Shown in pieces: positions 22,062 to 25,191 of a stretch of DNA of 64,000 nucleotides. The position numbers and the translations under genes are program-made. The stretch lies in the NCBI RefSeq assembly GCF_054482595.1, contig NZ_CM137008.1; one strand, written 5' to 3'. A model generated the notes under the pieces. It was given only the letters and a program-made list of their open reading frames with translations, had not been told where the DNA came from and did no database searches. Numbering within the stretch: the stretch's first letter is position 1; each line of letters opens with the position of its first letter.

Positions 22062-24284
22062 TTATTTTAACATTGATTTCACTTTCCGGGCAACCCGGCG
22101 AACCAGGCTGGTGCCTCGTTTTGCGCCTTGGACATGAATTGCTTCATACAGAGCATTAAAACGGTCATGGGCCCAGCCATCTCTTTGCTGAGAAATAAGA
22201 CCATCAACCTTATTATTTAAAAGTTGTAACTCGTTACTGACAGAATGACCACCATTGATGCTCCGCAAGCGATTCACTTCACTCTCAAGTTCTTGAATCT
22301 TCTCGAGGTAGGAAGGTATCAACCCCATTGCATAGTTATATTTAACATTCTCATCCATAAAAGGACGGAAACTGCGGTAGTTATTTTTACTCTTATTTCC
22401 ACTTAACAACATGCCGGAGTTTGCAACTCTATACCAAAATAGAGGTTCCGGGACGATTTGCAATTTATATCCCTGTAATGATATTTTGGCAAAAAACTCC
22501 CAGTCTTCATGACCTAAACCGTAATCTTCAGTAAATCCGCCTACTTTTTCAAAAACCTCTTTTCTGATCAGCGCATTAGCATCGCCAAAGCAGTTACTAA
22601 AGCTGGCGATATTTAAATCAGGCCCTAACGGAAGCCAGCAGTGCGTCATTTTACGGAACGGAGAAGGGAACTCCTCACCAAAAATAAGATCGCTTGGTGT
22701 GGTTAACACATCGGCCCCAGAGTTTAATGCTGCAGTAACAAACGTTTCTACCTCAAAAGGCTTAGCAACATTATCATCGTCCATAAACATCAGATATTCG
22801 CCAGAGGCGTGTCGCGCAGCCAAATTCCTTGCAGCACCCAGATAGTTATTAGAACTACGGACAATTTTCCAGCCTCGAGAGTTAAAATCATTCTCGATGA
22901 GATTTAAATAACGATGAGAATCTTCTGTCGTACTTCCATCATCAACCAAGATGACCTCAATATTTTGGTACGTCTGAGATTTTATTGATGCGAGTGCTTG
23001 CTGAAGCAAATGGTGACGTTCGAAGTGAGTTATACACACGCTAACTAACGGGCTGTTAGCTTCATCGATTTTCTTGAATGCGCGGTTGTTTTTTCGTTCA
23101 ACTGCGACAAACCAAGCTTCTTTAATATTGTCTTGTGATTCAGCAAGCCCTGGTTTTATATTTATATTTTTTAAGCGATAGTGGATTTTCCAGTATAAAT
23201 CGACAGGTGTAGGAATAAATAGAACTTCCGCATGATGCTCCTGCTGAATAAGCTCTGGAATTCCACCAACGTTTGAAGCGAGGAAATTAACGTTATTAAT
23301 CAAGCATTCATAAACAGTATAGGGTGAGTTTTCTACAAGTGATGGAATGATGACTAATACATTTTTTCTTTTTATATATTCATTAGCGTTGGTACGATCA
23401 TAGTCGCAGATGACATTAACTGCGAGTCCCAAATTTTTAGTCTGATTCATAATATAAGTAAATGAATCAGTTTTCCCCATGGTGACATTTTTTCCGAGGA
23501 AGGTTACTCCAGAAATGCTCTCTTTATCTTCATCAGATAGTTTTCTTAATGCACGCAGGAATATGTCAAGTCCTTTACGGGTTTCAAGGCGGCCGAAAAA
23601 TACAAGCTCAACGCCAGAAGCTGGCTTTTCATTTATTTTAACTGTAACATCATCTCTCGTCACAAACCCTTGAAATGGCTCGCAATTTAAAATTACATGA
23701 CGTTCTTCAGGAACATTCCAGTGCTTACTCAACATCCAATCAATTAAATACTGAGACGGACTAACAACTTCATCCGCCATTTCAACCACCATTTTCTCCA
23801 TATAATAGAGTTCAAGATGGTTCTGATCATATGGAAGCTGGTAATTACCTTCATCAGCCCATAACGTTGAACTGTGAGTATTTACAATGAACTTTGTATT
23901 TTCAAAATCCGTTCCATTCTTTTTGCTTAATAAAGTGTAATAAAGATCTGCCTGCCACTCACAAGAAATAACAGTGTCATAGATGTTATTTTCTTTCAAC
24001 CAGAGATAAATTGAATAACTTTTCCTTCTAAAATACGGTGCATCAATATTAATCTCTTTTATCAGTCCGGTTCTTAGCAGATTGATACCAAAGGTACTAT
24101 AAATACGTGACCAGTCGCTAAATTTCGATACAGATGATTCAGAATAGTCGCCACATGTATACAATACATCAACATCATACCCCTTTTTTGCCAAAGTAGT
24201 GGCAAGAGCAGTGAAAGCAGTACCAATACCGCCGTTACGGACAGGCCCCTCAATGTCCGGCGTCATTATAAGAATTTTCTTCAT
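22062..24284 (-). CDS. two-domain glycosyltransferase (N-terminal GT-B/GT4-like, C-terminal GT-A/GT2-like), WbbY-like
   Basis: 740 aa. N-terminal GT-B fold (PDIEGPVRNGGIGTAF..., ...IPSLVENSPYTVYECL). C-terminal GT2 (VSVCITHFERHHLLQQALASIKSQTYQNIEVILVDDGST, MFMDDDN DxD). Visibly AT-rich. Confidence 0.6.
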   Translation of the reverse strand: MKKILIMTPDIEGPVRNGGIGTAFTALATTLAKKGYDVDVLYTCGDYSESSVSKFSDWSRIYSTFGINLLRTGLIKEINIDAPYFRRKSYSIYLWLKENNIYDTVISCEWQADLYYTLLSKKNGTDFENTKFIVNTHSSTLWADEGNYQLPYDQNHLELYYMEKMVVEMADEVVSPSQYLIDWMLSKHWNVPEERHVILNCEPFQGFVTRDDVTVKINEKPASGVELVFFGRLETRKGLDIFLRALRKLSDEDKESISGVTFLGKNVTMGKTDSFTYIMNQTKNLGLAVNVICDYDRTNANEYIKRKNVLVIIPSLVENSPYTVYECLINNVNFLASNVGGIPELIQQEHHAEVLFIPTPVDLYWKIHYRLKNINIKPGLAESQDNIKEAWFVAVERKNNRAFKKIDEANSPLVSVCITHFERHHLLQQALASIKSQTYQNIEVILVDDGSTTEDSHRYLNLIENDFNSRGWKIVRSSNNYLGAARNLAARHASGEYLMFMDDDNVAKPFEVETFVTAALNSGADVLTTPSDLIFGEEFPSPFRKMTHCWLPLGPDLNIASFSNCFGDANALIRKEVFEKVGGFTEDYGLGHEDWEFFAKISLQGYKLQIVPEPLFWYRVANSGMLLSGNKSKNNYRSFRPFMDENVKYNYAMGLIPSYLEKIQELESEVNRLRSINGGHSVSNELQLLNNKVDGLISQQRDGWAHDRFNALYEAIHVQGAKRGTSLVRRVARKVKSMLK

Positions 24285-24381
24285 TGTAACCCTTCCTTTG
24301 TAACCTAGACTTTTCTATGATATTAGTGAATTGAAGTAGTGTAAGATAGCAGTCGGTAGCTTCTGTTAAACAGGATAAAAA

Positions 24382-25191
24382 ATGACCAATATGAAGTTAA
24401 AATTTGATTTGCTTCTAAAATCTTATCATCTATCTCATCGATTTGTCTATAAGGCAAACCCTGGTAATGCTGGAGATGGTGTAATTGCATCTGCGACGTA
24501 TGACTTTTTTGAACGAAATGCTCTTACCTATATCCCTTACAGAGATGGCGAGTGCTACAGTTCTGAAACTGATATTTTAATTTTTGGAGGCGGAGGAAAC
24601 CTGATAGAAGGATTGTATTCTGAAGGTCATGACTTTATCCAGAATAATATTGGGAAATTTCATAAAGTAATAATAATGCCGTCGACAATCAGAGGGTATA
24701 GCGATTTATTCATCAACAATATTGATAAGTTTGTTGTTTTTTGTCGCGAAAATATCACCTTCGATTATATTAAATCTCTCAACTACGAACCAAACAAGAA
24801 CGTATTCATTACTGATGATATGGCATTTTATCTCGATCTTAATAAATACCTGTCACTTAAACCCGTCTATAAAAAACAGGCCAACTGCTTCAGAACGGAC
24901 TCCGAATCTCTAACTGGAGACTACAAAGAAAACAATCATGATATTTCGCTCACCTGGAATGGCGATTATTGGGATAATGAATTTCTGGCGCGTAATTCTA
25001 CCCGTTGCATGATAAACTTTCTTGAAGAGTATAAAGTTGTCAATACCGACAGGCTGCATGTGGCAATTTTAGCATCTCTGCTTGGCAAAGAAGTCAACTT
25101 CTATCCTAACTCATATTACAAAAATGAAGCTGTTTACAATTATTCACTTTTTAATCGTTATCCAAAAACATGCTTTATTACGGCAAGTTGA
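24382..25191 (+). CDS. polysaccharide pyruvyl-transferase-family protein (putative)
   Basis: 269 aa; N-terminal NPGNAGDGVIASATYDFF and C-terminal TDRLHVAILASLLGK resemble the CsaB/WcaK pyruvyl-transferase fold motifs (recalled, not searched); divergent from the WbbY-like gene. Confidence 0.45.
   Translation: MTNMKLKFDLLLKSYHLSHRFVYKANPGNAGDGVIASATYDFFERNALTYIPYRDGECYSSETDILIFGGGGNLIEGLYSEGHDFIQNNIGKFHKVIIMPSTIRGYSDLFINNIDKFVVFCRENITFDYIKSLNYEPNKNVFITDDMAFYLDLNKYLSLKPVYKKQANCFRTDSESLTGDYKENNHDISLTWNGDYWDNEFLARNSTRCMINFLEEYKVVNTDRLHVAILASLLGKEVNFYPNSYYKNEAVYNYSLFNRYPKTCFITAS

Follow-up and report, generated by a model that had tools for sequence, protein, structure and literature searches.

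A Klebsiella O1-antigen extension pair, wbbY-wbbZ, next to a complete rfb-2a cluster on a tRNA-Ser island in the Escherichia coli chromosome

The DNA analyzed here is a stretch of 64,000 nucleotides (RefSeq assembly GCF_054482595.1, contig NZ_CM137008.1), hereafter referred to as the window. A preliminary description of it had placed a divergent pair of open reading frames, coding for proteins of 740 and 269 amino acids, between positions 22,062 and 25,191, and had compared the larger protein with the glycosyltransferase WbbY and the smaller one with polysaccharide pyruvyl transferases. We found both reading frames at exactly these positions and assign them as follows:

22062-24284, minus strand: wbbY, 740 amino acids, ATG start; predicted bifunctional galactan II (O1) polymerase
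24285-24381: divergent intergenic region, 97 bp between wbbY and wbbZ
24382-25191, plus strand: wbbZ, 269 amino acids, ATG start; putative PEP-dependent pyruvyltransferase for the O1b cap

The G+C content of the wbbYZ region is 36-41%, compared with 48-57% in its flanks. In DNA as AT-rich as that of the pair, the long and intact reading frames of wbbY and wbbZ are not chance occurrences.

A Pfam search bore out the dual-domain architecture that had been proposed for the larger protein: its N-terminal half matches Glyco_transf_4 (residues 18-200; 9.8e-7) and Glycos_transf_1 (residues 218-373; 4.1e-11), and its C-terminal half matches Glycos_transf_2 (residues 415-581; 1.4e-26), with the GT2 match extending to residue 620. 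WbbY is a single polypeptide in which a GT-B/GT4 module is followed by a GT-A/GT2 module with a DxD motif (DDD at residues 502-504); behind the GT2 module, the chain continues with a coiled-coil-like stretch and a basic tail. The EX7E motif spans E318 to E326, and its first glutamate is the published catalytic residue E318, which is kept. Biochemical work on the Klebsiella protein established WbbY as a two-module polymerase, and an E318A mutant added a single β-Galp residue and no more (PMC10629545). We infer that the GT4/GT-B module with E318 is an α-1,3-Galp transferase and that the GT2 module with its DDD motif is a β-1,3-Galp transferase. The protein is not only WbbY-like but WbbY itself: it is 99.3-99.9% identical to K. 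pneumoniae proteins of 740 residues that fall into its 90% cluster, and exactly the same protein is encoded on 828 contigs of a public sequence collection. Its S293C exchange is missing from all seven full-length members of the cluster with which it was compared, all of them from organisms other than E. coli. A phage origin of wbbY was considered and rejected: nothing in the window is phage-like, and tblastn against a phage collection (evidently one without the published copy BK049963.1) gave no full-length match, only distant GT2 matches that all were below 60% identity.

The proposed pyruvyl transferase partner proved to be WbbZ. The protein matches PS_pyruv_trans (PF04230) over residues 29-243 (1.6e-15), and 268 of its 269 residues (99.6%) are identical to the crystallized K. 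pneumoniae WbbZ (PDB 6X1L, chain A, "WbbZ protein"), the sole difference being a cysteine at position 58 in place of arginine; the exact sequence is also present among K. pneumoniae records. The motifs N29-A-G31-D32, R122-E-N-I-T126 (RxxxT) and H226 are all kept; the motif arginine, residue 122 by our count, is numbered 121 in the published work. For the NCTC11682 protein and a phage homologue, it was demonstrated that WbbZ attaches pyruvate as a 3,4-(S)-ketal to the terminal β-Galp residue of galactan II in a PEP-dependent reaction and that the products are shorter (PMC10629545). In the NCBIfam search, WbbZ matched no family and WbbY stayed below the cut-off of every model (best score 63 bits, cut-off 423). 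Since NCBIfam gave no name to either protein, their identity rests on the Pfam matches, the PDB entry and direct sequence identity, and it is settled because the crystal structure 6X1L and near-identical characterized proteins exist.

The pair also shows the organization of the O1 locus, with wbbY and wbbZ adjacent and divergent, and with transposable elements on both sides. The spacer of 97 bp has the same length in K. pneumoniae NTUH-K2044 (PMC4237132). A promoter-like site on the minus strand (24449-24420) lies within wbbZ, which fits the published start of wbbY transcription inside wbbZ. The surrounding insertion sequences are:

21191-21958, minus strand: IS1 (IS1B-like), adjoining wbbY on its 3′ side (NF033558; RefSeq annotation of E. 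coli THO-010)
25461-26081 (about), minus strand: IS256-family transposase remnant, a frameshifted pseudogene 3′ of wbbZ (RefSeq annotation)
26237-27447, plus strand: ISKpn26 of the IS5 family (NF033581, 6e-110)
27600-30014, minus strand: a complete and a truncated element of the IS3 family, and small transposase fragments (NF033516, RefSeq)
30015-31077, minus strand: IS903B of the IS5 family, inserted into the GT2 gene beyond wbbO at its 3′ end (NF033579, RefSeq; limits from BLAST)

Six IS elements or remnants thus lie between 21.2 and 31.1 kb. The IS1 that had been reported on one side of the pair has its transposase reading frames at 21206-21903 (the limits of the element were taken from BLAST against plasmid and K. 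pneumoniae copies), and an orphan hsdM gene (19641-21212) overlaps it by 22 bp. On the other side, an 80-residue reading frame of the IS256 remnant (25458-25700) matches NF033543, and the IS5 element noted previously is ISKpn26, 99.1% identical to the copy of this element on plasmid pRHBSTW-00995_3. The remnant, ISKpn26, the two IS3-family elements and IS903B form a nest between wbbZ and the following genes:

32329-38949, minus strand: rfb-2a (galactan I) cluster wzm-wzt-wbbM-glf-wbbN-wbbO, all genes intact (NCBIfam, RefSeq)
32329-33474, minus strand: wbbO
33475-34365, minus strand: wbbN
34362-35516, minus strand: glf
35535-37427, minus strand: wbbM, with DUF4422/GT111 and GT8 domains
37442-38182, minus strand: wzt, 246 amino acids (short Wzt)
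38182-38949, minus strand: wzm
39263-39270, minus strand: candidate ops element for the recruitment of RfaH, GGCGGTAG, located some 300 nt upstream of wzm
31047-32207, minus strand: GT2 gene 3′ of wbbO, truncated by IS903B (386 amino acids, compared with 434 in Raoultella)

The cluster begins about 5.9 kb from the wbbYZ pair, close to the 6 kb estimated before, and its six genes are complete. The ops 8-mer occurs just once in the window, on the right strand and in the right position; since 1.19 chance matches are expected window-wide, the 8-mer taken by itself carries little weight. In the truncated GT2 gene, homology stops at residue 377; the end of the gene, at 31047, is separated from the stop codon of wbbZ by 5.86 kb. 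Since the IS nest divides the pair from the rfb cluster and the neighboring GT2 gene is truncated, the region has been rearranged. We considered the GT2 gene as a gmlABD side-chain gene and rejected it, as it is not of the Gml type and is truncated; beyond it, no gmlABD genes were found in the IS nest. The rfb proteins have exact copies in the public collection and are 99% identical to the Raoultella versions (for WbbM, WbbN and WbbO, to Raoultella or Klebsiella-genus versions). Because the WbbM of the island, 99% identical to that of Raoultella, shares no more than 78% identity with the form common in K. pneumoniae, authentic galactan I is an assumption with regard to the acceptor polymer.

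Many plasmid matches had suggested a plasmid origin of the window, which we rejected: it matches E. coli THO-010 at 99.94% identity, with 32 substitutions or indels in 50 kb, and core genes of the E. coli chromosome flank the O1 genes on both sides. Between them lies an island of about 41.6 kb, inserted at serX between ghrA and ycdU, that carries wbbYZ and the complete rfb-2a cluster and is delimited by:

9373-9460, plus strand: tRNA-Ser(GGA) gene serX, the integration site (ARAGORN)
9447-9460: left 14-bp direct repeat, the last 14 nt of serX
49698-50906, minus strand: tyrosine integrase of the island (RefSeq annotation)
51067-51080, plus strand: right 14-bp direct repeat, CCCCCTCACCGCCA, which duplicates the 3′ end of the tRNA and marks the end of the island

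The right repeat was found by local alignment; the window contains no exact repeat of the tRNA 3′ end of at least 16 nt. A 607-residue reading frame of the island matched nothing in Pfam or PADLOC. The same island is present in E. coli SMS-3-5 (where wbbYZ are EcSMS35_2255/2256), with 99.99% identity over 36 kb, 100% identity over the last 6.1 kb and 100% identity in the wbbYZ segment. Homology to the SMS-3-5 island ends at position 51120. In SMS-3-5, however, the island resides at the tRNA-Ser gene beside infA (serW) instead of at serX. The element has the features of a tRNA-integrated island: it starts in a tRNA gene, closes with a repeat of the tRNA 3′ end, encodes an integrase of the tyrosine type, and occupies a different tRNA copy in a second strain.

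Taken together, we are highly confident that the locus represents the Klebsiella O1-antigen extension pair wbbY-wbbZ, combined with a complete rfb-2a cluster on an integrase-bearing serX island in the chromosome of E. coli, and that its gene content predicts an O1a/O1b product. The earlier expectation that the galactan is not plain but bears a cap or modification agrees with this reading, because the nearby cluster is the complete six-gene set for galactan I. The predicted polysaccharide would consist of galactan I, an extension by galactan II and a partial pyruvate cap.

The mechanism of its synthesis is taken from published work on near-identical Klebsiella proteins, and we infer it for the strain here. 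WecA would prime undecaprenyl phosphate with GlcNAc, and WbbO, WbbN and WbbM would then build galactan I, [→3)-β-Galf-(1→3)-α-Galp-(1→], using UDP-Galf provided by Glf. At the non-reducing end, WbbY would add galactan II, [→3)-α-Galp-(1→3)-β-Galp-(1→], with its GT2 module transferring β-Galp and its GT4 module (E318) α-Galp; polymerization of this repeat on galactan I from UDP-Galp has been demonstrated for the Klebsiella and phage proteins only (PMC10629545). WbbZ would move pyruvate from PEP to O-3/O-4 of the terminal β-Galp residue, and this cap would stop extension and give rise to the O1b glycoform beside the uncapped O1a form. Both glycoforms are expected to leave the cytoplasm through the short Wzm/Wzt ABC exporter, since recognition of the chain terminus is not known for an exporter of this kind; export of the two forms has likewise been ascribed to an unspecific transporter (PMC10629545). 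WaaL would ligate the exported chains to lipid A-core, and the host would then display an O antigen of the Klebsiella O1 type besides its own.

The main rival to this reading accepts the genes as authentic wbbYZ and rfb-2a but regards them as cryptic cargo, silent or out-competed by the native O antigen, so that no O1-type polysaccharide would reach the cell surface. The IS-ridden state of the region and the truncation of the adjacent GT2 gene speak in its favor, as do related E. coli strains, such as YD786, WCHEC025985, H17 and XDL, in which either wbbY or the O2a cluster is interrupted or missing (Table S2, PMC10629545); these cases suggest that selection for the pathway is not uniformly strong. 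The native O-antigen pathway, by competing for undecaprenyl phosphate and for WaaL, could moreover limit display. Against this view, all eight required reading frames are intact, the island has stayed 99.99% identical between strains that carry it at two different loci, the ops element is still found upstream of wzm, and the divergent promoter region has kept its Klebsiella length. Moreover, E. coli is able to make the polymer from these genes: the K-12 strain DH5α equipped with rfb-2a and phage-borne wbbYZ makes O1a and O1b (PMC10629545), and the natural wbbYZ carrier F8188-41, an O19ab strain, reacts with anti-galactan II serum. We regard cryptic cargo as unlikely.

Far less probable still is the proposal that WbbY and WbbZ act on another acceptor, either a Raoultella-type variant polymer or the O antigen of the host, and form a hybrid glycan that is not O1: it draws on the Raoultella-like rfb proteins, with the divergence of WbbM described above, and on the extra GT2 gene beyond wbbO, but that gene is truncated, the set, order and domains of the cluster genes (DUF4422 and GT8 in WbbM, Glf, WbbN, WbbO) fit rfb-2a, the clusters of THO-010 and SMS-3-5 were scored "O2a cluster: Yes" by Kelly et al. 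(Table S2, PMC10629545), WbbY requires merely a terminal α-Galp-(1→3)-β-Galf in vitro (PMC10629545), and a host O antigen, if it is Wzy-dependent as is usual in E. coli, would be polymerized in the periplasm, beyond the reach of cytoplasmic WbbY.

Beyond the assignment of the locus as wbbYZ with rfb-2a, the data can be joined to a wider reading, which we offer tentatively and hold to be somewhat less than an even prospect. The island may currently be mobile, driven by its integrase and directed to the identical tRNA-Ser(GGA) genes serX and serW, and may equip unrelated lineages of E. coli with an O1a/O1b pathway of Klebsiella/Raoultella that is complete and expressed. It would be a chimera of a Raoultella-type rfb cluster and a K. 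pneumoniae-type wbbYZ module, joined by IS elements. If this holds, carriers would display two O antigens at once and would cross-react with antibodies and vaccines directed against Klebsiella O1.

Among clinical isolates of Klebsiella, O1 is the commonest O serotype, and it is one of the leading targets for vaccines and antibodies. E. coli strains that possess the whole O1a/O1b pathway could give cross-reactions in serotyping, could absorb O1-directed antibodies or be targeted by them, and could serve as a reservoir from which the O1 locus spreads; these implications have already been stated in the literature for the very strains concerned. The arrangement of wbbYZ and rfb-2a in this E. coli lineage is likewise already published, and no new principle emerges from the window. 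Hsieh et al. (2014) had pointed out the genes of SMS-3-5, and Kelly et al. (2023, PNAS; Table S2, PMC10629545) named THO-010 and SMS-3-5 as carriers of wbbYZ and a complete rfb-2a cluster, with WbbY and WbbZ 99.6% and 99% identical, respectively, to those of K. pneumoniae NCTC11682. On the location of the genes, the published work states no more than that "chromosomal locations vary", and it contains no description of the island structure, the att sites or the mixed origin of the two halves (PMC10629545). Our addition is a modest one: the carrier is a tRNA-Ser island with defined ends, it occupies two tRNA-Ser loci, and its rfb half is Raoultella-like.

Among the known systems close to the window is the O1 locus of K. 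pneumoniae NTUH-K2044 and NCTC11682, with which it shares the divergent genes, the length of their spacer and flanking transposase genes; a core of 4.28 kb (21956-26237) is 99.1% identical to a K. pneumoniae chromosomal locus. In Klebsiella, the rfb genes are unlinked to the pair and lie near his, whereas in the window both are united on one island. The window further differs in its alleles (S293C in WbbY, C58 for R58 in WbbZ), in its E. coli host, and in the absence of 3.1 kb of DNA that lie between IS1 and wbbY in the K. pneumoniae copy used for comparison. The block reaching from IS1 through wbbY, wbbZ and the IS256 remnant into one end of ISKpn26 (21191-26520) is found again on plasmids, with 98.9-99.5% identity in Klebsiella, Raoultella and E. 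coli and 93% on a plasmid from Citrobacter; together with the chromosomal core in K. pneumoniae, this recurrence makes the earlier view of the pair as IS-mobilized cargo plausible. Examples of plasmid-borne wbbYZ are K. pneumoniae pRHBSTW-00995_3 and E. coli pRHB33-C12_3, in contrast to the copy of the window, which is chromosomal and part of a tRNA island. The rfb cluster of pRHB33-C12_3 is 99.7% identical to that of the window, and this plasmid carries rfb-2a and gmlABD besides wbbYZ (PMC10629545). The wbmVWX locus of K. pneumoniae O2ac follows the same logic, in that an add-on locus extends galactan I by a second polymer and a pyruvyltransferase (WbmX) modifies the terminus, but its glycosyltransferases and polymer differ from those of wbbYZ, and WbmX belongs to another pyruvyltransferase clade than WbbZ. 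Pvg1p of Schizosaccharomyces pombe (PDB 5AX7) has its fold and PEP-site residues in common with WbbZ at an identity of only 19%.

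The preliminary description had placed two divergent open reading frames in the window, one for a dual-domain glycosyltransferase and the other for a putative polysaccharide pyruvyl transferase. Both were found at exactly the claimed positions, separated by a spacer of 97 bp:

22062-24284, minus strand, wbbY, ORF of 740 aa
24382-25191, plus strand, wbbZ, ORF of 269 aa

Pfam analysis bore out the dual-domain architecture: an N-terminal GT-B module (Glyco_transf_4, residues 18-200; Glycos_transf_1, residues 218-373, 4.1e-11) precedes a C-terminal GT-A module (Glycos_transf_2, residues 415-581, 1.4e-26) in the 740-aa protein, which carries an E-x7-E motif (residues 318-326) and DDD (residues 502-504). 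For the 269-aa protein, the Pfam match is PS_pyruv_trans (PF04230, 1.6e-15), and 268 of its 269 residues agree with those of PDB entry 6X1L, deposited under the name 'WbbZ protein'. The two differ only at position 58 (C58 here, R58 in 6X1L), and the protein retains the motifs by which Kelly et al. (2023, PMC10629545) define its enzyme class: N29-x-G31-D32, R-x-x-x-T, and H226. The proposed likeness to Klebsiella WbbY held as well: one to five positions differ from full-length K. pneumoniae cluster members (99.3-99.9% identity), and S293C is the one difference from all seven full-length cluster members compared, a set without any E. coli sequence. The exact WbbZ sequence occurs in the public protein collection on at least 1000 contigs, K. 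pneumoniae chromosomes among them, and the exact WbbY sequence on 828. At the DNA level, one K. pneumoniae chromosome (a 5.37-Mb record filed in a plasmid collection) has a wbbYZ locus with 99.1% identity to a 4.28-kb core of the region (21956-26237), and the G+C content of the wbbYZ segment is 36-41% versus 48-57% in its flanks. By every sequence-level test that we ran, the pair belongs to the WbbY/WbbZ family.

[quoted passage not shown] WbbY is a two-module polymerase whose alpha-1,3-Galp module is abolished by the E318A substitution, so that a single beta-Galp is added, while WbbZ is a PEP-dependent pyruvyltransferase that places a 3,4-(S)-pyruvate ketal on the terminal beta-Galp, yielding glycoform O1b; in vitro, this pyruvylation ends elongation (Kelly et al., 2023, PMC10629545). 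The galactan I cluster (rfb-2a) and a further glycosyltransferase gene are located in the same window:

38949 down to 32329, minus strand, wzm, wzt, wbbM, glf, wbbN, wbbO, in this order
31047-32207, minus strand, GT2 gene of 386 aa directly downstream of wbbO

The individual pathway steps have been shown for near-identical proteins elsewhere, and we infer them for this strain. Undecaprenyl phosphate would be primed by WecA, galactan I would be made by WbbO, WbbN, and WbbM with UDP-Galf from Glf, and WbbY would add galactan II onto it. Some of the chains would receive a pyruvate cap from WbbZ, capped and uncapped chains alike would pass through the short Wzt/Wzm exporter (Wzt 246 aa), and WaaL would ligate them to lipid A-core. 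Competence of this strain for the pathway is supported by several features: all eight pathway ORFs are intact in the window, the ops 8-mer GGCGGTAG occurs just once in the window, correctly oriented and some 300 nt upstream of wzm, and a promoter-like site for wbbY is located inside the start of wbbZ. Published transcript mapping likewise puts the wbbY transcription start inside wbbZ (PMC4237132). Set beside these features, it seems rather unlikely that the genes are authentic yet cryptic cargo, either unexpressed or undisplayed. That WbbY and WbbZ act on a different acceptor polymer is highly improbable, since the gene set matches rfb-2a and the cluster is scored as O2a in published work. The interpretation originally proposed, a capped or modified galactan, is thus supported.

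The surroundings of the pair are rich in insertion sequences:

21191-21958, IS1, on the wbbY side
about 25461-26081, IS256 transposase remnant, on the wbbZ side
26237-27447, ISKpn26, on the wbbZ side beyond the IS256 remnant
between ISKpn26 and IS903B, two IS3-family elements
30015-31077, IS903B

IS1 on one side, and the IS256 remnant plus an IS5-family element (ISKpn26) on the other, thus lie as first described. The notion of IS-mobilised cargo gains support from the recurrence on plasmids of a block that begins at IS1, takes in wbbY, wbbZ, and the IS256 remnant, and reaches into the end of ISKpn26 (21191-26520); its identity is 98.9-99.5% on Klebsiella, Raoultella, and E. coli plasmids and 93% on a Citrobacter plasmid.

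The window is E. coli chromosome. Strain THO-010 (NZ_AP022540.1) is 100% identical to it over the first 12 kb and 99.94% identical over positions 7884-57882, where 50 kb contain 32 differences. In the left flank, csg, ycdX, and ghrA precede serX; in the right flank lie ycdU and a conserved lipid-type gene cluster. Both wbbYZ and the rfb genes reside within an island of about 41.6 kb at serX (9373-51080):

9373-9460, tRNA-Ser(GGA) gene serX
9447-9460 and 51067-51080, 14-bp direct repeat CCCCCTCACCGCCA of the tRNA 3' end, bounding the island
49698-50906, tyrosine integrase of the island, at the end distal to the tRNA

In E. coli SMS-3-5 the same island (99.99% identity over 36 kb, 100% over the last 6.1 kb) occupies serW, the other copy of the tRNA-Ser(GGA) gene, with infA and clpA as neighbours; this implies that it has moved site-specifically between the two tRNA genes. 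Among 5426 complete E. coli genomes, 34 contain 80% or more of the wbbYZ segment.

The rfb proteins of the island are, by sequence, Raoultella-type: WbbM has 99.0% identity to its R. ornithinolytica counterpart, against just 78% to the WbbM common in K. pneumoniae, and WbbN has 99.7% identity to that of R. planticola. The wbbYZ pair is of K. pneumoniae type (99-100%), which gives the island the look of a two-donor chimera, and the IS nest joining its halves suggests stepwise assembly. Plasmids of E. coli, Enterobacter, and Citrobacter also carry the rfb cluster, either by itself or together with wbbYZ (99.2-99.8% identity). IS903B truncates the GT2 gene after wbbO (386 aa versus 434 aa in Raoultella); homology stops at residue 377, the final nine residues come from the IS end, and the segment that was lost is predicted to be a coiled-coil tail.

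The left part of the island (9610-19416) is a CP4-44-like module with DUF4942, CbtA/YeeU toxin-antitoxin, JAB (RadC-like), antirestriction, DUF932, and YeeP-like GTPase genes and an Ag43/Cah autotransporter adhesin (15287-18208); a diverged module of this kind (66-74% DNA identity) also flanks wbbYZ on the K. pneumoniae chromosome. An orphan type I methylase gene, hsdM (19641-21212, plus strand), matches its family model at full length and is followed by neither hsdS nor hsdR; its last 22 bp extend into IS1, which presumably removed the remainder of the restriction-modification system. Adjoining ISL3 and IS66 fragments, a primase-polymerase-like ORF (42719-43744, minus strand) is a decayed defence-type gene, whose RefSeq counterpart is a frameshifted, incomplete 'TOTE conflict system archaeo-eukaryotic primase domain' pseudogene. 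For a 607-aa ORF (45721-47544, minus strand; 36% G+C), neither PADLOC nor a Pfam search with the threshold relaxed to E<=10 yielded a hit; its neighbours are an inovirus-type Gp2 gene on one side and an HTH/DUF3987 primase/integrase module on the other, a position typical of the variable cargo of P4-like elements. The DUF3987 (P4 alpha-like primase/helicase) gene (47909-49474, plus strand) is an intact 521-aa ORF here and in SMS-3-5, whereas the THO-010 annotation marks it as frameshifted; compared with THO-010, the window contains one additional A, at 48218. The window is therefore a close relative of THO-010 or a corrected sequence, not THO-010 itself. Right of the island, 51273-64000 (minus strand) is core chromosome with ycdU and a series of same-strand genes that resembles the E. 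coli aryl-polyene-type lipid cluster; the series includes an ACP S-malonyltransferase gene, one for a LolA-like protein of lipoprotein sorting, genes for parts of an ABC transporter, and an ORF of 852 aa.

The divergent wbbY/wbbZ pair, its 97-bp spacer, and the flanking transposase genes have all been described, as have 99% identity to EcSMS35_2255/2256 of SMS-3-5 and the reactivity of a wbbYZ-carrying E. coli O19ab strain with anti-galactan II serum (Hsieh et al., 2014, PMC4237132). E. coli DH5alpha with wbbYZ and rfb-2a makes both O1a and O1b, and virtually identical wbbYZ genes near a complete rfb-2a cluster are frequent in E. coli isolates at varying chromosomal sites (Kelly et al., 2023, PMC10629545). 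Table S2 of that study names THO-010 (AP022540) and SMS-3-5 (CP000970), each with WbbY/WbbZ at 99.6%/99% to NCTC11682 and 'O2a cluster: Yes'; the combination of wbbYZ and rfb-2a is therefore already known for this very lineage. The Raoultella-type origin of the rfb genes, their joining to wbbYZ through an IS nest, and the recurrence on plasmids add detail beyond the published papers.
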